IMG/VR virus record: IMGVR_UViG_2534681704_000008
From: a virus
Taxonomy: Duplodnaviria; Heunggongvirae; Uroviricota; Caudoviricetes
Length of the DNA stretch: 47,550 nt
Strand: one strand, 5' to 3'
This document shows, piece after piece, positions 1 through 47,550 of this stretch. Position 1 is the stretch's first letter, and the number at the start of each line of letters is the position of its first letter. The notes below the pieces were generated by a model. That model was not told where the DNA came from, did not search any database, and saw nothing but the letters and a program-made list of their open reading frames with translations. A program made the position numbers and the translations under genes.

Positions 1-669
1 ATGTGTGGACGCTTTGCCCAATCCCAAACGCGTGAAGATTACCTTGCGCTTCTCGCGGAAGATATTGAACGCGATATTCCCTATGATCCCGAACCCATTG
101 GCAGATACAACGTCGCGCCGGGAACCAAAGTTCTTCTGCTCAGTGAACGTGATGAACACCTTCATCTGGATCCGGTTTTCTGGGGATATGCTCCCGGATG
201 GTGGGATAAACCGCCGCTGATTAACGCCCGCGTAGAAACTGCGGCCACCAGTCGTATGTTTAAACCGCTCTGGCAACATGGTCGGGCAATCTGTTTTGCC
301 GATGGCTGGTTTGAGTGGAAAAAAGAAGGCGACAAAAAACAGCCTTATTTTATCTATCGTGCTGACGGACAACCTGTTTTTATGGCCGCGATAGGTAGCA
401 CACCGTTTGAGCGCGGTGACGAAGCCGAAGGATTTTTAATTGTCACTGCAGCAGCAGACCAGGGTCTGGTAGATATTCATGACCGCCGCCCGCTGGTACT
501 GTCGCCAGAAGCTGCGCGGGAATGGATGCGGCAAGAGATTGGCGGTAAAGAAGCATCAGAAATTGCTACCAACGGCTGTGTGCCAGCAAACCAGTTCACC
601 TGGCACCCGGTATCGCGCGCGGTAGGTAATGTCAAAAACCAGGGCGCGGAGTTAATTCAACCTGTTTGA
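1..669 (+). CDS. yedK: SOS response-associated peptidase YedK (SRAP/HMCES family)
   Basis: Complete 222-aa ORF starting MCGRF (Cys2 nucleophile after Met removal); length and sequence match E. coli YedK as recalled. Confidence 0.85.
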   Translation: MCGRFAQSQTREDYLALLAEDIERDIPYDPEPIGRYNVAPGTKVLLLSERDEHLHLDPVFWGYAPGWWDKPPLINARVETAATSRMFKPLWQHGRAICFADGWFEWKKEGDKKQPYFIYRADGQPVFMAAIGSTPFERGDEAEGFLIVTAAADQGLVDIHDRRPLVLSPEAAREWMRQEIGGKEASEIATNGCVPANQFTWHPVSRAVGNVKNQGAELIQPV

Positions 670-917
670 TAAGCCAGGAGACTATTGATCAATAATACTG
701 CGTCATAAGAAATCTCTATTAGACAAAGTAGACGCTCCTTCCACATGCGCCACAAGAAACCTCTATTCCAGTGACACAATTACGCCTGATTATTTCCCTA
801 GCCCGGAATATGAATAAAAACATCAACAAAGATTAAATTATTCAAACGTTACTGTTGCGTCTGCGGTCGTAACAACATCCGACGTGGTGATGTGTATCAA
901 ATGAGGCCTCTGATGAT

Positions 918-1051
918 CAGAGGGTTTATCGCGTATACGGATCGTGGATGGCAGAAAACTTTCAGAATCAGGTTTCCATTTTAAACCAGAAATTGAGTGA
1001 GTTTGCCCCATCCATGCCCCACGCGGTGAGATCGGATGTAATTAACAACAG
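918..1051 (+). pseudogene. Relic 3' end of a tyrosine integrase gene (about 45 C-terminal codons, no start)
   Basis: Translation ...QRVYRVYGSWMAENFQNQVSILNQKLSEFAPSMPHAVRSDVIN closely parallels the C-terminus of the intact integrase at 46255-47550 (...VYRVYGSWMAENNQDQVLILNQKLSEFAPSMPHAVGTDDY). Confidence 0.55.
984..1024. repeat. attL core: 41-bp direct repeat identical to 47488-47528
   Basis: aaccagaaattgagtgagtttgccccatccatgccccacgc occurs identically at both ends; flanks are homologous but diverged. Confidence 0.7.
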
Positions 1052-1185
1052 GTTACAAAACCTACACCTGCATGCTCATCATATGAGCATACATTTTTCA
1101 TAATCGACAAAGATCGTCCAAGAGCGCACCAAATAACAGATGGTTAGAGTCGTCGAAAACATCAGTCGTCTAAGTTCGCCTTAGA

Positions 1186-1222
1186 ACGAGTGCTGTTTTA
1201 TGCCCCATCCATGCCCCATCAC
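1186..1222. repeat. Degenerate third copy of the att core
   Basis: gagtgctgttttatgccccatccatgcccca shares a 17-bp identical block (gccccatccatgcccca, 1202-1218) with the att core; abuts the stop codon of the UmuD'-like gene. Confidence 0.45.
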
Positions 1223-1608
1223 ATCACCGGGCAGTCGTCGAACTCGCCAGAGCGAGCATCGTTGATGCTGTAGGTGATCACCCCAAACACCGGACGCGAT
1301 GTATCTGACACTTCGTCCTTCAAAGGTAACGGCTCCCTCCTTACATTTTCAGGGTTTTCCAGATAAGGCTGCGGATGCGTTCTGTAGCGCATGATCCTGA
1401 ACTCACCATCAACAGCGCAGACGAGCAGAGAACCGTCTTTCGGTGTTAGCGATGAATCGACGATGAGCATGGCGCCCTTCATGATTCCAGCGCGAAGGTA
1501 TGTCGCGCCAGCTATCATCATGTACGTGGCTGAAGGATGCGCGATAAGCCTCTTGTCGAGTGATATGCGATCTTCAACGTAGTCTGCTGCCGGGCTCGGG
1601 AATCCCAT
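1219..1608 (-). CDS. UmuD'-like protein (S24 peptidase fold, pre-truncated, catalytic dyad apparently substituted)
   Basis: 129 aa starting MGFPSPAADYVE, equivalent to UmuD' after Cys24-Gly25 autocleavage; aligns to UmuD through LIVDS/VDGEF/VFGV; GDSM replaced by GATY and VKKL by IMRY; GGAGGTG RBS; no in-frame start upstream before a stop. Confidence 0.7.
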   Translation of the reverse strand: MGFPSPAADYVEDRISLDKRLIAHPSATYMMIAGATYLRAGIMKGAMLIVDSSLTPKDGSLLVCAVDGEFRIMRYRTHPQPYLENPENVRREPLPLKDEVSDTSRPVFGVITYSINDARSGEFDDCPVM

Positions 1609-1625
1609 GATGCACCTCCGATGGT

Positions 1626-1645
1626 TACTGTATATGCATACAGTA
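1626..1645. promoter_or_regulatory. LexA (SOS) box in the divergent promoter region
   Basis: tactgtatatgcatacagta: perfect CTGT-N8-ACAG palindrome, 18-37 nt upstream of the UmuD'-like start codon. Confidence 0.75.
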
Positions 1646-1721
1646 TTACTGATCGGCGGTATCGATCAATAGCGTTTGTGGTGCTACACTTCAGACCTTT
1701 CCGAATTCACTGATTTCTATA

Positions 1722-2084
1722 ATGTTAAAGTTATTCGCCAAGTACACATCAATAGGCATCATCAACACGCTCATCCATTGGGTTGTGTTCGCCATATGCA
1801 TCTACGCATTCCATACTGGTCAGGCGCTTGGCAATTTTGCCGGTTTTGTTGTCGCTGTATCATTCAGCTTCTTCGCAAATGCCAGATTCACCTTTAAGTC
1901 ATCAACCACGACCCTGCGTTACATGTTGTATGTCGGATTTATGGGCACGCTAAGCGCTGCGATTGGCTGGATTGCTGATAAGTCAGGCATGGCGCCTGTA
2001 GTCACGTTAATCGTGTTCTCCGCAATCAGTCTGGTTTGCGGTTTCATTTATTCAAAATTCATTGTCTTTAGGGATGCGAAATGA
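1722..2084 (+). CDS. gtrA: GtrA bactoprenol-glucose flippase
   Basis: 120 aa, [23 protein letters not shown], four predicted TM helices; overlaps gtrB start. Confidence 0.85.
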
Positions 2085-2998
2085 AAATTTCTCTGGTCGT
2101 TCCTGTCTTCAACGAAGAAGACGCGATACCTATTTTTTATAAAACTGTTCGGGAATTTGAAGGACTTCAGCAACATGAAGTTGAGATAGTCTTCATAAAT
2201 GACGGAAGCAAAGACGCGACAGAATCAATCATAAACACGCTGGCTATTGCCGATCCGCTTATTGTTCCTCTGTCTTTCACGCGCAACTTTGGCAAGGAAT
2301 CAGCACTCTTTGCCGGCCTTGACCATGCAACTGGTGAAGCGGTTATCCCTATTGACGTTGACTTGCAAGATCCCATAGAAGTCATCCCGCACCTGATTGA
2401 GAAGTGGCAGCAGGGTTCGGATATGGTTCTGGCTAAGCGCTCTGACCGCTCAACTGATAGCCGACTGAAGCGTAAGTCAGCTGAGTGGTTTTATAAGCTT
2501 CACAACAAAATAAGCAACCCGAAAATTGAAGAGAACGTAGGCGATTTCCGGCTTATGTCTCGCGAAGTTGTTGAAAACATCAAGCTCATGCCAGAACGTA
2601 ATCTATTCATGAAAGGTATCTTGAGCTGGGTTGGCGGCAGAGCAGACGTTGTTGAATACGCTCGCGCAGAACGCGTTGCGGGAAATACAAAATTCAACGG
2701 GTGGAAACTGTGGAACCTTGCCCTTGAGGGTATAACTAGCTTCTCAACATTCCCTCTGCGCGTATGGACGTACATAGGGCTTATCGTTGCTGGCATAGCG
2801 TTTATCTACGGCGCATGGATGATCATCGATACGCTGGCATTTGGTAATGCTGTGCGCGGATATCCATCTCTACTTGTCTCCATCCTGTTCCTTGGGGGAG
2901 TGCAACTTATTGGGATTGGCGTTCTTGGTGAATATATTGGAAGAATATATATCGAGTCTAAAAAGCGACCTAAATACATTCTAAGGAAGATGAAATGA
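2081..2998 (+). CDS. gtrB: GtrB bactoprenol glucosyltransferase (GT2)
   Basis: 305 aa; N-terminal GT2 signature ([11 protein letters not shown]...DGSKD...DVDLQDP) and C-terminal TM helices. Confidence 0.9.
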
Positions 2999-4557
2999 GT
3001 TCGCGTGTTGGATTAATATCAATCTTTATTGTGTTTTTATTGGTGTTAATAATTCAATTGTTAACACCATTTCACTCTGATGATTTCGGTTTTTATCTGA
3101 AAGGGTACTCATTCGAGACCCTGCATCATGTTTACATGACGTGGAGCGGAAGGCTGTTCTCCGATTTTACTGGAAGCCTTGTAATGTCCATCAAGGACAA
3201 AACAATAATTTCATTTATAAATGCATGTGCTTTTACATCGTTAATTGTCGTTTTAACAAAGCTACCGCTTGAAAACAAAAACAACTGGCCTGTTTTTATT
3301 CTGTTGTTCATGCTTTATTGGATCGACAACCCAAGTTTGAGCCAGACAAGCTTCTGGGTAGTAGGCTCTGCTAACTATCTATGGACTAATCTCTTAGCCT
3401 ATTCATGGTTATATCTTTACTTCAGGTATGGTTCAACTTCAGATGTAAAAATGAAAGCTTTGTTATTGCTAATGGCTTTCATAACAGGCATGACAACAGA
3501 GAATCTAAGCACTTCAATATTCGGTGTTTTGTTCCTCTACAATGCCTTAAATTTCTATATAGAACGAAAAATAAACTGGTTATCTGTTTCTCAAATGCTG
3601 TTGCTGCTTGCAGGTGTTGGGGTATTACTACTTGCTCCAGGTAACTTTGTGAGGTCATCATCTTGTTGTTTTGATTTTTATTCCCAGCCTCTGATTACAA
3701 GGATAACAAATCATTTCCCCGGTAAGTTCATATCAGAAATGATGGAGTACAAGCATGTTATTGTTCTAACTGTCATTTCAATTGGTTATGGGCTATATAA
3801 AAAGAAAGATATGACGTTACCATTACTTTTTGTAATTGGTGCAATAGCTTCAAACGCCATGCTGTTCGCCTCACCAACAAATACAGGTAGAGTGTTAAAC
3901 ACGGGGTTGGTAATGATGTTGGCATCTCTTTCCTTTGCTTTGAGTTCAATATCTGAATTCAAGGCAAGTAAATTTCTAATTTATGTTGCATCTATTTTAT
4001 CTTTGGTTCTTTTTGCTCAGTCGTATGCTAACAATTACCAAAGCATAAAGAGTGTGTTTGCTCAGGATCAGATCAGAACGCAGATGATAAAAGACGGGTA
4101 TGATGCCATTCCATACTTTTATCAAGGAAGCATAGAGAAAGAATCAGATAAGCTTGACATATTTTTTAATTCAAGCGCTATTTCTAAATTTTATGGAGCA
4201 ACAAAGGATGTTGGCTTAATCGATCTTCCTTTTGATTATTCTTTGATGACGCAACAAAAGACAAATATTAATGATAGCTATTTCATTAACTTCAGGAAGC
4301 TTGACGACGTATTCCTTTTTGAAGTATCAAACCCTGATGTTAAATTTGAAAACTATATTTTGTTTTTCAGATTAACAATGGATGATGGTAGCGTTGAGAA
4401 TCATGATTTCATACCTGTTCTACGTAATTATAAAGGACATTTGTATTTGAACTCATGGAAAGTTGATACAAAAGGTAAAGAAATAAAGTTATTCGAGATT
4501 GGATTCTACGATCCGGCACTTAAGAAAAATGTAAGGTCTGTCAGCGTCCCTATGTAA
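2995..4557 (+). CDS. gtrC: GtrC-type serotype-specific O-antigen glucosyltransferase (polytopic membrane protein)
   Basis: 520 aa, many TM segments, low GC, immediately downstream of and overlapping gtrAB. Confidence 0.65.
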
Positions 4558-40165: not shown

Positions 40166-40329
40166 AAGCGTGGTCTCTCGAAGAGCTGGCGCTGCTGTGG
40201 CGACACTCAAACGCTGAAGTCGCAGAGATTACCGGCCGCAGTATTGATGAGGTCGGAGATAAGCGGCTGCAAACCAATATTGAGCGTAATGGCTGGGATG
40301 TAAACGATCCGGAACGGGAGGATGCATGA
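40162..40329 (+). CDS. Small hypothetical protein absent from the ORF track
   Basis: 55 aa ([25 protein letters not shown]...), ATGA overlaps at both ends. Confidence 0.45.
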   Translation: MKAWSLEELALLWRHSNAEVAEITGRSIDEVGDKRLQTNIERNGWDVNDPEREDA

Positions 40330-41387
40330 GCAAAGTAGGCGATTATTTCTTTGAGTTCCCGGCGTCGCGCGGCACGCAGGGTTGTACGGTGACTTACATG
40401 ATCACAGCACCTGCCCGCGCACTGACGCGCATACTTGCCTCCGACAATCACGGCAGCACGCTCGATCGTTCTCAACGCGAAATTAACCAGGCGCGAGTGA
40501 AGAAGTTTTACCAGTACCTCGTCAATGCATACCAAAATAAAGAGCCCTTCATCATCCCGCCACTGGTCGGCAACTGCGACGCGGATATTGAGTTTGAAGA
40601 GTTCGGCAATACGAATGTGGGCGTCGCACGCTTCCCTATGGATGCAGTGATCAAGCTGTTCGACGGCCAGCACCGCGCAGCCGGATTAGCTGAGTTCTGC
40701 CGGACTTACGGAGAGCCAATCAGCATCCCGCTGATGCTAACCCATAATCTCCCACTGAAGGCACGCCAGCAGTTCTTCTCCGATATCAATAACAACGTCT
40801 CGAAACCTTCCGCTGCGATCAACATGGCCTATGACGGGCGTAATGAAGTTGCACAGGGGATGGTGACGTTCCTGTCTCAGCACGACACCTTCGCAGAGGT
40901 GACAGACTTCGAGCACAACGTCGTACCGGCGAAAAGTAAGTTGTGGGTGAGCTTCAAGGCGCTTAGCGACGCGACGGCCAAGTTTGCCAACGCGGGCGGC
41001 AAGCCGCTGGAAATGGGCGACATCGAATCCATCTGGGAGGCCTGGTTGGCCCTGACGCAGATCGAAGCGATTCGCCACGGCACCAGCCAGGCAGACTACA
41101 AGCGCGACTACATTCAGTTCCACGCAGTGATGATTAACGCCTTCGGCTATGCCGTTCAGCGGCTGATGGCTGACCACTCAATCGTAGATATCGTCCAGAT
41201 GATTGAGGAACTGGCGAGCAGTGCGGGCTCCTCTGAGATGGAAGACTTCTTCCTGATTTCCCGGTGGGGTGGTGTCTGCGTGAATGCCGAAAAAGACCGT
41301 CCAACGGTCATTGCCTCCGTTCCGGCGCAGAAATCTGCTGCAGACCGTCTCGTCAAAGTTATCCTGGCGAAAAGCCTTGAGGAGTAG
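40326..41387 (+). CDS. DGQHR-domain protein (ParB/DndB-like superfamily)
   Basis: 353 aa with an exact FDGQHRAAG motif. Confidence 0.7.
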   Translation: MSKVGDYFFEFPASRGTQGCTVTYMITAPARALTRILASDNHGSTLDRSQREINQARVKKFYQYLVNAYQNKEPFIIPPLVGNCDADIEFEEFGNTNVGVARFPMDAVIKLFDGQHRAAGLAEFCRTYGEPISIPLMLTHNLPLKARQQFFSDINNNVSKPSAAINMAYDGRNEVAQGMVTFLSQHDTFAEVTDFEHNVVPAKSKLWVSFKALSDATAKFANAGGKPLEMGDIESIWEAWLALTQIEAIRHGTSQADYKRDYIQFHAVMINAFGYAVQRLMADHSIVDIVQMIEELASSAGSSEMEDFFLISRWGGVCVNAEKDRPTVIASVPAQKSAADRLVKVILAKSLEE

Positions 41388-41389
41388 TT

Positions 41390-41845
41390 ATGACAATGCA
41401 GATGCACTCAATGCCCTGGCCTGAATCTCAGGCCATCTTTTTGTCAAAAACCTACCTTTACATGAACATGGATGAGCTGTGCAAAAGGTTACAACGCACC
41501 AAAGCGTCTATCCAGATGAAGGCCAGCAGCATGGGTCTTTACCGCTGTGGGAAATTAACCATCGACGATCTGCAGCTGATTGAAGCCCTGCTTGATGCCG
41601 GTCTTGAGCATGCGGTTATTGCCAGAAAGTTCGAACTCTCCAAGCCTCAGCTAATGAGGGTTCTGGAAACGGGAGCCTTTCATTGCGATATCTGCGGCAC
41701 GTTCTCCGCGTCTATGCGTTCCTCTTACTGGAAATTCGACGGAGAGCCGCAAAGGACTTATAGCTGCTGTCCGGAGTGTTGCCGGGCGATGGTTGAAAGC
41801 TTTAACGCAGGACACGACGGGCCGTTGCTGGCACGCAGACGGTAG
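41390..41845 (+). CDS. Hypothetical protein with C-terminal Cys-rich zinc-ribbon-like motif
   Basis: 151 aa; HCDICGTF...SCCPECC. Confidence 0.45.
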   Translation: MTMQMHSMPWPESQAIFLSKTYLYMNMDELCKRLQRTKASIQMKASSMGLYRCGKLTIDDLQLIEALLDAGLEHAVIARKFELSKPQLMRVLETGAFHCDICGTFSASMRSSYWKFDGEPQRTYSCCPECCRAMVESFNAGHDGPLLARRR

Positions 41846-41850
41846 GAGGC

Positions 41851-42510
41851 ATGACCGAAAAATACGCTCTTATCTACGCAGATCCTCCCTGGTCTTACGG
41901 CAACACCATCAGCAATGGCGCCGCTGCCGACCACTATTCCACCATGAAGCTAATCGACATCAAACGCCTGCCAGTCTGGGAACTTGCCGCCGAAAACGCT
42001 GTGCTGGCGATGTGGTACACCGGCACGCATAACCAGGAGGCGATCGAACTGGCCGAGGCCTGGGGCTTTACCGTTCGCACTATGAAAGGCTTTACCTGGG
42101 TGAAGCTGAACCAGAACGCCGAACTGCGCATCAACAAGGCGCTGGCTGAGGGTGAGGTCATCGACTTTTACGACTTCCTCGATCTGCTTAACGCCGAGAC
42201 TCGCATGAATGGCGGCAACCACACCCGGGCCAATACTGAAGACCTGCTGATAGCTACCCGCGGCGCCGGGCTGGAACGTAAGCACGCCGGGATTAAGCAG
42301 GTGGTGTACAGCCCACTCGGCGCGCACAGCGAAAAGCCGTGGGAAGTTCGGCACCGGCTGGAGCTGCTTTATGGAGATGTGCCGCGCATTGAGCTATTTA
42401 GCCGCAGCGCGGCGCCGGGCTGGGATCACTGGGGGAATCAGTGCGCCACCGCCGCGGTGGAACTGCTTCCCGGCTGCGCCATCGATGTTGTGAAAACGGA
42501 GGCCGCATGA
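41851..42510 (+). CDS. N6-adenine DNA methyltransferase, MT-A70-like
   Basis: 219 aa with the DPPW catalytic motif (YADPPWSYGN) near the N-terminus. Confidence 0.75.
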   Translation: MTEKYALIYADPPWSYGNTISNGAAADHYSTMKLIDIKRLPVWELAAENAVLAMWYTGTHNQEAIELAEAWGFTVRTMKGFTWVKLNQNAELRINKALAEGEVIDFYDFLDLLNAETRMNGGNHTRANTEDLLIATRGAGLERKHAGIKQVVYSPLGAHSEKPWEVRHRLELLYGDVPRIELFSRSAAPGWDHWGNQCATAAVELLPGCAIDVVKTEAA

Positions 42511-43556
42511 CGCCAGCAGCTTATTACAACGAAATCGACCCGTTCGCTGCTCAGTGGCTGCGTAACCTGATCGCCGGCGGTCATATCGCCCCGGGCGAAG
42601 TTGATGAAAGGAGTATTGAAGATGTCACACCTGACGATCTGCGAGGATTCACGCAGTGCCACTTCTTCGCCGGAATTGGCGTATGGTCTCATTCCCTGCG
42701 GCTCGCCGGATGGCCTGACGATAAACCAGTCTGGACCGGCTCCTGCCCGTGCCAGCCTTTCAGCGCGGCAGGCAAAGGAGATGGGTTTGCTGACGAGCGG
42801 CACCTTTGGCCCCACTTCTTCCACCTCATCAGCGAGCGCAGACCTGAGCATGTCTTTGGCGAACAGGTTGCAAGCGGTAACGCAAACACATGGTTCGACC
42901 TTGTACAAGCTGACCTGGAAGGAATGGAATACGCCTTCGGGCTTGTGCCGTTTGCGGCAGCGGGCGTCGGTGCTCCGCACATCAGAGAGCGGGCCTACTG
43001 GGTGGCCTACGCCAACAGCCAGATCGACGACCGGCGCAGGCACATCGGGGCGGATGGGAGGAATGAACATTCAGACTGCAGTAACCCTGACAGGTTGGCC
43101 GACACCCACAACGATCGACAACAATCAGGTTGCTGGCCAAGCTGCGGCTGCAAATGCACCAAAGCGGGGATCCACACTGGGCGGAGCATCAAGGCTTGCA
43201 GGATGGGTGACGCCAACCTCACGCGACTGGAAGGACTCGGCGGGAATGACTGCGCAGCGGGATGGCAAGGAGCGACTGGACCAGTTGCCTCGCCAGGCGT
43301 ACACATGCGGGCCCTTGAGGTTAACGGTTTTTGGCGAGATGCGGACTGGCTCTTTTGTAGAGATGGAAAATGGCGTCCAGTTGAACCCGGCACATTCCCG
43401 CTGGTTGATGGGGCTGCCGCGCGCCTGGTGCGAGTCGAGCCCGGGGTGGCAAGAGTGGCAAGCAGCAACCGCGTCGGCCGCCTGAAAGGGTACGGCAACG
43501 CCATAAACGCACAGGCTGCGGCTGAATTTATCCGGGCCTATATGGAGGGTTTATGA
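42507..43556 (+). CDS. DNA cytosine-5 methyltransferase (Dcm-like); reading frame possibly disrupted
   Basis: Motifs I (FFAGIGVW), IV (SCPCQPFSAAGK), VI (VFGEQV), VIII (HIRERAYW) and X-like (RLKGYGNAINAQAAAEFI) in the annotated frame; the +1 frame also looks coding in the middle. Confidence 0.6.
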   Translation: MTPAAYYNEIDPFAAQWLRNLIAGGHIAPGEVDERSIEDVTPDDLRGFTQCHFFAGIGVWSHSLRLAGWPDDKPVWTGSCPCQPFSAAGKGDGFADERHLWPHFFHLISERRPEHVFGEQVASGNANTWFDLVQADLEGMEYAFGLVPFAAAGVGAPHIRERAYWVAYANSQIDDRRRHIGADGRNEHSDCSNPDRLADTHNDRQQSGCWPSCGCKCTKAGIHTGRSIKACRMGDANLTRLEGLGGNDCAAGWQGATGPVASPGVHMRALEVNGFWRDADWLFCRDGKWRPVEPGTFPLVDGAAARLVRVEPGVARVASSNRVGRLKGYGNAINAQAAAEFIRAYMEGL

Positions 43557-46254: not shown

Positions 46255-47550
46255 ATGGCTAAGTCAGCATACCCAACAGGCGTGGAGAATCATGGCGGTA
46301 CGCTCCGCATATGGTTCATCTATAAAGGCAGCCGGGTGCGTGAAAGCCTCGGCGTGCCGGATACACCAAAAAATAGAAAAGTAGCTGGCGAGTTACGCGC
46401 GTCGGTGTGCTTCGCGATAAAGACAGGCAACTTCAACTATGCCGCACAGTTCCCTGACTCGCCGAACCTGAGAAGATTTGGGGTGGAGAGCAAGGAAATC
46501 ACCGTGCTCGAACTGGCGAACAAGTGGCTTGAACTGAAGCGTATGGAGATCAGCACCAACGCGATGTCACGTTATACATCTATAACGCGCAATATGGTAC
46601 CGCGGATCGGCGGAGACAGGCTGGTATCTGCGGTGACGCAGGAAGACCTGCTGTTTATCAGAAAGGAACTGCTGACCGGGTATCAGACGCTGAAGGCTGG
46701 ACACAAAACACCAGTTAAAGGCCGCACAGTCAGAACGGTCAACAACTACATGAAGACCATGGCTGGCATGTTCAAGTTCGCTGCTGAAAGTGGTTATGTG
46801 AAGGTGAGCCCTTTCACCGGGATCGCCCTTCTCAAGCGTTCGCGTTGCGAGCCTGATCCGCTCACCCGCGATGAGTTTGTCAGGCTGATTAACGCTTGCG
46901 CCACCCAGCAGTTGAAAAACATGTGGTCGCTGGCAGTGTACACCGGCGTGCGCCACGGTGAACTGGTGTCGCTGGCCTGGGAAGATATCGACCTGAAAGC
47001 AGGAACGATGATGATCCGCCGAAACCACACGTTGACGAAGGAGTTTACCCTTCCGAAAACCGAGGCTGGGACAAACCGCATCATCAACCTTATTCAGCCA
47101 GCTATTGACGTGCTGAAGAACCAGGCCGAATTAACCCGCCTGGGTAAGCAGTATCAGGTAGAGGTGAAACTGCGTGAGTTTGGTCGCACAGAAGTGCATC
47201 CGTGCACATTCGTGTTTAACCCACAAAAAGGATTGCGCAATGGCCGTGCAGGGCATCATTACGCAGTGGGGTCGATCAACCAGTCGTGGGAGGCAGCAAT
47301 GCGACGCGCCGGGATTCGCTATCGCAGAGCATACCAGTCCCGACACACGTATGCATGCTGGTCGTTGGCCGCCGGTGCTAACCCGAACTTCATCGCGAAG
47401 CAAATGGGCCACACCGACGCACAAATGGTTTACCGGGTGTACGGATCCTGGATGGCTGAAAATAACCAGGACCAGGTACTCATCCTCAACCAGAAATTGA
47501 GTGAGTTTGCCCCATCCATGCCCCACGCAGTGGGAACGGATGATTATTAA
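46255..47550 (+). CDS. int: Tyrosine integrase (lambda Int family)
   Basis: 431 aa, AGGAGGG RBS; catalytic region RHTYACWSLAAGANPNFIAKQMGHTDAQMVYRVY; the 3' end contains the att core. Confidence 0.9.
   Translation: MAKSAYPTGVENHGGTLRIWFIYKGSRVRESLGVPDTPKNRKVAGELRASVCFAIKTGNFNYAAQFPDSPNLRRFGVESKEITVLELANKWLELKRMEISTNAMSRYTSITRNMVPRIGGDRLVSAVTQEDLLFIRKELLTGYQTLKAGHKTPVKGRTVRTVNNYMKTMAGMFKFAAESGYVKVSPFTGIALLKRSRCEPDPLTRDEFVRLINACATQQLKNMWSLAVYTGVRHGELVSLAWEDIDLKAGTMMIRRNHTLTKEFTLPKTEAGTNRIINLIQPAIDVLKNQAELTRLGKQYQVEVKLREFGRTEVHPCTFVFNPQKGLRNGRAGHHYAVGSINQSWEAAMRRAGIRYRRAYQSRHTYACWSLAAGANPNFIAKQMGHTDAQMVYRVYGSWMAENNQDQVLILNQKLSEFAPSMPHAVGTDDY
47488..47528. repeat. attR core: 41-bp direct repeat identical to 984-1024, inside the int 3' end
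   Basis: Exact identity with 984-1024. Confidence 0.7.

Follow-up and report, generated by a model that had tools for sequence, protein, structure and literature searches.

A HumD-family, UmuD'-like gene behind a predicted LexA box at one end of an integrated lambdoid prophage

Introduction

What can a UmuD-like gene contribute to a prophage when it has neither the N-terminal arm of UmuD, nor its catalytic residues, nor a umuC partner? Such a gene lies near one end of the prophage found in the window, by which we mean the whole stretch of 47,550 nucleotides that was analysed. In Escherichia coli, UmuD' is the product of RecA-dependent cleavage of a 139-aa precursor, keeps Ser60 and Lys97, and is encoded in an operon with umuC, and in all of these respects it differs from the protein described here. 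MucA, RumA and ImpA, which are carried by plasmids or an ICE, resemble the window protein in being mobile-element-borne, SOS-linked accessory subunits of Y-family polymerases; these three proteins are full-length and self-cleaving, and are encoded together with a cognate UmuC-type polymerase gene. The UmuD form encoded by phage P1, named HumD, is shorter and already activated (PMC7092418), and humD has been described as a LexA-regulated SOS gene (PMC9603915). The P1 protein is the subject of McLenigan et al. 1999 (J Bacteriol 181:7005), a paper cited in PMC4713147 and PMC11541004.

An earlier note, made from the letters of the window alone, had read the gene as an SOS-controlled, pre-truncated mimic of UmuD' with a substituted catalytic dyad, and had implied that it was novel. 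Here we compare the gene, its product and its surroundings with known systems, and weigh the readings that could account for them.

Results and Discussion

Assignment of the gene to the HumD family

The interval contains a single long open reading frame, which starts at an ATG and encodes a protein of 129 aa on the minus strand (Table 1). The protein matches the NCBIfam equivalog model NF051876, "HumD family translesion DNA polymerase", along its entire length (residues 1-129 of 129) with 209.3 bits against a cutoff of 120; the NCBIfam model of the UmuD subfamily gives 92.8 bits, which is under its own cutoff of 110. It also matches Pfam Peptidase_S24 (PF00717, E=1.5e-8) and carries the label 'UmuD-like protein' in PHROGs. 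In a phmmer search of solved structures the best match was UmuD' (1umu, E=1e-22), and the same structure was ranked first by Foldseek (E=5e-7, TM 0.75 on the target) when an AlphaFold2 model of the protein (mean pLDDT 73, with 80-88 in the core) was used as query, followed by the C-terminal domains of LexA and CI. The S24 (LexA/signal-peptidase-like) fold is present according to both Pfam and the search with the model. Identity to E. coli UmuD' (1UMU, 1AY9, 1I4V) is about 40%.

A tblastn search of phage genomes returned 93 records, including the 'UmuD' of HK639 (94.6% identity), the homolog in HK140 (72.7%) and the HumD proteins of P1 and P7 (64.3% over all 129 residues). The closest cluster representatives (<=95% identity) in a large protein collection come mostly from Enterobacter, Lelliottia, Citrobacter and E. 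coli, and many of them are already named 'HumD family translesion DNA polymerase' or 'S24 family peptidase', labels that are also in use in E. coli RefSeq genomes. RefSeq proteins named HumD are up to 95% identical to the window protein.

The P1 protein is likewise 129 aa long (MGFPSPAADYVES…NDARSGEFDDCPVI) and aligns with the window protein without any length change at 64% identity, sharing the N-terminus MGFPSPAADYVE and a tail of the form …NDARSGEFDDCPV-I/M. As in the window, the P1 gene is phage-borne, lacks a umuC partner and is preceded by a LexA box, in this case an annotated LexA site (TACTGTATAAATGAACAGTA) at a distance of 19 nt from the ATG. The settings of the two genes differ, in that P1 is a plasmid prophage with humD beside phd-doc and lxr, while the window gene belongs to an integrated lambdoid prophage, where it lies between attL and gtrABC. 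The homolog in HK639 has the same LexA box as the window gene and is located next to attP and int.

We class the window gene as an ordinary member of the known, curated HumD family, whose prototype is found in phage P1. LexA-controlled UmuD' mimics borne by prophages are a class that has already been described, and this one is not new. Since being pre-truncated, standing under LexA control and lacking umuC are the defining traits of the HumD family, which has near-identical annotated members, the novelty implied by the earlier note was set too high.

Table 1. Features of the humD end of the prophage and of its far end, in window coordinates.
Feature	Position	Strand	Basis or remark
yedK, host SRAP / SOS-response-associated peptidase; chromosomal neighbor, outside the element	1..669	+	
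Chromosomal flank: intG-like integrase remnant of an older cryptic prophage	803..1078	+	near-identical to K-12 intG (cryptic prophage PR-G)
Prophage arm, junction to humD stop codon	1079..1218		divergence from K-12 empty site after ~1078; contains 18-mer
humD, HumD-family pre-truncated UmuD'-like protein, 129 aa	1219..1608	-	NF051876, Pfam, phmmer, AF2
Shine-Dalgarno sequence GGAGG, 6 nt upstream of humD ATG	1615..1619	-	direct sequence reading
LexA (SOS) box TACTGTATATGCATACAGTA, predicted, perfect 20 bp	1626..1645		unique; 17 nt from humD ATG (18-37 nt upstream)
gtrA-gtrB-gtrC O-antigen modification operon, divergent from humD	1722..4557	+	ORFs; annotated relatives
Prophage integrase, far end of element	46255..47550	+	context; 18-mer copy at 47508-47525

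Position of the translation start

The N-terminus of the window protein, MGFPSPAADYVE, corresponds to UmuD from Gly25 onward, which is the end that UmuD' acquires upon cleavage. The initiating Met is followed directly by this Gly, so that there is no N-terminal arm and no Ala/Cys-Gly cleavage site preceded by one. The humD ATG is the first ATG, GTG or TTG past the upstream in-frame stop codon; the translation of this stretch reads …Y*SIPPISNTVCIYSNHRRCI-MGFPSP… and holds no other start codon, its codons being taken up by the Shine-Dalgarno sequence and the LexA box. The absence of an upstream in-frame start and the post-cleavage N-terminus, both of which the earlier note had read from the letters, are therefore upheld.

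The relatives agree with this start. Among the 120 closest cluster representatives, 97 are exactly 129 aa long and 108 begin with MGFPSP, and a family with a conserved N-terminal extension, which the earlier note had named as the sign of a wrongly placed start, did not emerge. The few longer relatives (135-165 aa) carry short extensions, such as MYRRCN-MG or MSPISNTVYIYSIYRRCN-MG, which are read-through of the region of the Shine-Dalgarno sequence and the LexA box; because these extensions are not conserved and have this origin, we consider the longer database entries to be mis-called starts. One might suppose instead that the start of the window gene has been mis-called and that the true product is a full-length, self-cleaving protein similar to UmuD or LexA, given the existence of these longer entries and the annotation of the HK639 gene from a GTG three codons upstream. 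In the window, no start codon separates the in-frame stop from the ATG at 1608, the sequence that would have to encode the extension is occupied by regulatory signals, and the residue equivalent to Lys97 is Met, which removes the chemistry of self-cleavage. We give this explanation practically no credence, and a longer protein made from an upstream start was rejected.

Loss of the catalytic dyad

The phmmer alignment to 1umu, which includes a one-residue deletion at UmuD Ser57, places Thr36 of the window protein at Ser60 of UmuD and Met73 at Lys97, and an alignment with MAFFT gives the same placement. The Ser-Lys catalytic dyad is missing from the protein, and the substitutions proposed earlier (GDSM to GATY and VKKL to IMRY) hold. 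Thr and Met are also found in HK639, whereas HK140 has Thr and Lys, and P1 HumD, in contrast to the window protein, has both Ser and Lys (…AADSHH… and …YRIKRY…). The 120 closest cluster representatives have Thr (114), Ser (4) or Ala (2) at the position of Ser60, and Lys (58), Met (54) or Arg (6) at that of Lys97.

An exhaustive search of 1.84 billion representatives yielded 3,496 matches at E<=1e-3, the best single-domain ones of which split into two classes. The full-length class (n=62) has an N-terminal arm and an Ala/Cys-Gly site; the pre-truncated class (n=31), made up of 29 library representatives together with the window protein and P1 HumD, has a Met-Gly start. Ser and Lys are retained in 59 of the 62 full-length relatives, as against about 10 of 31 for Lys and about 5 of 31 for Ser in the pre-truncated class, where the Lys position is also occupied by Arg, Met, Cys, Val, Leu, Gln or Phe, and the Ser position by Thr, Ala, Pro, His, Asp and others. 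Relatives that lack the arm are thus less constrained at the dyad positions. To judge from these alignments, dyad loss is typical of pre-truncated relatives, and is a trait of the family rather than a quirk of the window gene.

HumD begins at the residue after the RecA-dependent cleavage site and so needs no self-cleavage; as it is made directly in the UmuD' form, the dyad has accordingly decayed (Ser60 to Thr36 and Lys97 to Met73). Nohmi and colleagues are said to have found in 1988 that Ser60 is dispensable if UmuD' is supplied pre-cleaved and is needed only for cleavage, and the drift of the dyad in the pre-truncated class fits this result. With the arm gone, the dyad is free to drift while purifying selection still acts on the remainder of the protein, a natural experiment that agrees with a role of the dyad mainly in self-cleavage. 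The search also matched proteins of 250-300 aa that each contain two UmuD-like stretches and appear to have tandem S24 domains.

Purifying selection on humD

Absence of the catalytic residues could also be expected if humD were a decaying, non-functional fragment of umuD that had lost its 5' end and its catalytic residues at a recombination-prone prophage end. Broken copies do occur elsewhere, as fragments of aa ~46-128 in Stx phages, mEp234 and Sf101 and as a two-piece copy in BTP1, and the copy in E. coli MB52 sits in a prophage remnant. The window gene itself does not behave as a remnant: it differs from its HK639 counterpart at 44 nucleotides and at only 7 amino acids (dN/dS 0.058), its length is that of most close relatives, as described above, it has its own Shine-Dalgarno sequence, ATG and LexA box, and the same architecture is found in P1, where HumD is active. 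humD is under purifying selection and is not decaying, and we regard the remnant explanation as highly improbable.

The LexA box and the humD/gtrA intergenic region

The motif CTGT-N8-ACAG occurs once in the 47.5-kb window, within the LexA box listed in Table 1, in agreement with the position and the perfect match given by the earlier note. The extended palindrome TACTGTAT-N4-ATACAGTA was found in none of 100 shuffled sequences, even when up to two mismatches were allowed. A LexA-type box about 20 nt upstream of the humD ATG is also present in P1 (the annotated LexA site), HK639 and E. coli MB52. In the window, the box is located in the 113-nt region (1609-1721) between the divergent humD and gtrA genes. 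A simple scan of positions 900-2100 found no sigma-70-like promoter.

Two GATC sites, at about 1651 and 1664, lie in the same intergenic region. It is conceivable that the gtr O-antigen modification operon is subject to SOS or Dam control.

A probable ready-made UmuD' substitute for host UmuC

No homolog of UmuC was found in the 47.5-kb window by tblastn with a single UmuC query sequence (best E 0.19), and a Y-family polymerase domain was found in none of the ten large ORFs (>=340 aa) scanned, which encode tailspike, portal, capsid, replication O, DndB-like and C5-methylase proteins. With UmuD as tblastn query, humD was the only match in the window. There is no umuDC-type operon, since humD is followed on its 3' side only by the 140-bp prophage arm and the junction. 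This bears out the absence of umuC noted earlier.

We consider it likely that the window HumD acts as an SOS-induced, ready-made substitute for UmuD', which joins host UmuC in lesion bypass of the Pol V type. LexA binding, dimerization, binding to UmuC and RecA, and lesion bypass are all ascribed to the window gene and protein by analogy with P1 HumD, to which the protein is 64% identical. In the lysogen, humD would be kept silent by LexA bound to the box, 17 nt from the ATG, and DNA damage would derepress it through the SOS response as the prophage is induced. HumD would then dimerize and join host UmuC, which would have to be encoded outside the window, and RecA filaments to form a translesion polymerase similar to Pol V. 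The slow activation of UmuD to UmuD' would thereby be bypassed, so that damaged templates of both phage and host could be copied sooner. The role suggested in the earlier note, that of a damage-induced, constitutively active UmuD' analog acting on host Pol V, corresponds to the published role of P1 HumD and is supported by this analogy.

In 1999, McLenigan and colleagues reportedly found that umuD-defective backgrounds regained mutagenesis and UV survival when given P1 HumD, and that the protein dimerized and bound both UmuC and RecA filaments. Good complementation by the P1 protein reportedly requires a high-copy plasmid, its expression is said to be poor, and a benefit to the phage has reportedly never been established. 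LexA-controlled UmuD' mimics of prophages are common across Enterobacteriaceae, and may increase SOS mutagenesis and help lysogens to tolerate damage.

The C-terminal tail and possible interactions beyond UmuD' substitution

Proteins of the HumD type reach about 14 residues past the last strand of UmuD', which has no such tail. In the window protein the tail comprises residues 116-129, INDARSGEFDDCPVM (DNA 1219-1263). It is the most conserved segment of the family, with a mean major-residue fraction of 0.96 among 108 close relatives; by the same measure, the N-terminal motif has a value of 0.95 and the loop 77-105 one of 0.74. An acidic-Pro-hydrophobic C-terminus is present in 13 of the 31 pre-truncated representatives and in none of the 62 full-length ones. 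The tail follows the pattern (E/D)(F/W/L)D(D/E)xP(V/F/C)(M/I/F)-COOH, seen as GEFDDCPVM in the window protein and as GGEFDDTPF in a distant relative, and it is kept as …NDDGCPVM in a divergent 107-aa HumD-like ORF of E. coli FLI21. In the AlphaFold2 model it has low confidence (pLDDT about 51).

The tail resembles the C-terminal motif of SSB, given as DDDIPF in PMC5872125; the SSB tip with which we compared it is DFDDDIPF. A literature search for SSB-tail mimicry in HumD found nothing specific. The HumD tail could be a mimic of the SSB C-terminus that docks HumD, or the HumD2-UmuC polymerase, onto host readers of that terminus, or that competes with SSB for these, a reading suggested by the resemblance of the motifs that we hold to be doubtful. 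Equally doubtful is the further step of the same reading, by which a probably flexible tail would have been gained along with the loss of the arm, making HumD-type proteins more than shortened UmuD'. If the mimicry were real, prophages would gain an SOS-timed handle on the traffic at replication forks. The presence of a tail that is missing from UmuD' suggests an interaction outside the simple model of a UmuD' substitute, and a HumD-specific tail may be of interest to specialists in translesion synthesis.

The same tail can also be taken to favor HumD as a modulator or antagonist rather than a polymerase subunit, which with its fold and tail would titrate host UmuD, UmuC, RecA* or SSB partners and so weaken or divert the SOS response or a checkpoint while the prophage is being induced. 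Its conservation, its absence from every UmuD-type representative, the likeness to the SSB motif and a low modeled confidence that fits a flexible linear motif are all in keeping with such a role. UmuD and UmuD' bind several partners, among them the beta clamp, DinB and Pol III subunits, which is also compatible with titration, as is the reportedly weak complementation by P1 HumD at low copy. Against this, the prototype P1 HumD is reported to complement UmuD' in mutagenesis and UV survival (McLenigan 1999, as cited in PMC7092418), the GFPSPAxDY N-terminal motif and the core show the conservation seen in true UmuD' proteins, and no direct sign of inhibitory activity was found. We therefore judge a modulator or antagonist to be rather improbable and retain the UmuD' substitute as the preferred reading. 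A paper on the SOS response of Gifsy-1 (PMC9879122), searched for another role of prophage UmuD-like proteins, mentions only a deletion of host umuD.

The prophage end and its variants

The left flank of the window is chromosome of the E. coli type, with yedK and the intG-like remnant. The integrase-homologous part of this remnant (918-1038) is 82% identical to the 3' end of the integrase gene of the prophage itself. yedK, which lies beside the prophage, is itself SOS-associated, and this appears coincidental. Alignment with the K-12 intG/fliE empty site holds to about position 1078, where K-12 goes on into fliE and the window into phage DNA; the junction between chromosome and prophage is therefore at ~1078/1079, which falls inside a hairpin (1072-1090). 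By comparison with K-12, the prophage appears to have been inserted between the intG-type remnant (PR-G of K-12) and the 3' end of fliE, with humD about 140 bp inside it, in line with the placement of the gene at a prophage end by the earlier note.

The earlier note had also described a degenerate att copy at the end of the gene. An exact 18-mer, TGCCCCATCCATGCCCCA, which contains two GCCCCA half-repeats, does directly abut the humD stop codon (1201-1218), and it recurs in the integrase remnant (1004-1021) and within the 3' end of the integrase gene of the prophage (47508-47525). The copy beside humD was ruled out as the att core, since the alignment with the K-12 empty site places the junction ~125-140 nt further left. 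The 18-mer may instead be an arm-type binding site for Int.

On its other side humD is linked to gtrA, whose operon has relatives annotated as GtrA family protein and yfdH glycosyltransferase, and beyond this operon is a tailspike gene on the minus strand. The humD-gtrA linkage is kept at 81-87% identity in other E. coli prophages and is also found in Salmonella phage BTP1, in which the order tailspike-gtr-humD-int is that of the window. More generally, the slot 'tail/gtr - humD - attP - int' is a recurrent one, found also in HK639, HK140, BTP1 and numerous E. coli prophages. HK639, HK140 and BTP1 differ from the window in their integrases and att sites, and HK639 also in having a tRNA-like 3' fragment in its attP region. 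In HK140, humD (HK140_028, which keeps the Lys of the dyad) is the second gene behind a 79-aa ORF, unlike in the window. In E. coli MB52 the chromosomal site of the window prophage is occupied by a prophage remnant that has the same arm and, including humD, a region of 93% identity. The structural genes of the prophage are nearest to those of temperate phages of Enterobacter and Klebsiella (84-88% identity over about one third of the region queried).

Several variants of this slot were also observed. The 79-aa ORF upstream of humD in HK140 is divergent from dinI. In E. coli FLI21 (3120-3716), the same slot beside gtrA holds a CTGT-N8-ACAG box, a 79-aa ORF and the 107-aa HumD-like ORF mentioned above (MGFASPANDYVE…NDDGCPVM), which is highly divergent and has retained nothing but the N-terminal motif and the C-terminal tail. 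The 3' humD fragments, which are unannotated, are found in EC.P3 as well as in mEp234, Sf101 and Stx1/Stx2 phages, and in the Stx-converting phages they lie near the genome ends. The BTP1 copy (3001-3373), probably broken, is located between gtrA and int. Such fragmentary copies suggest frequent decay and recombination in this moron slot.

Toward the integrase end of the prophage, the window encodes a DndB-like protein (PF14072) and a C-5 cytosine methyltransferase (40326-43556), which possibly form an anti-restriction or epigenetic cargo module.
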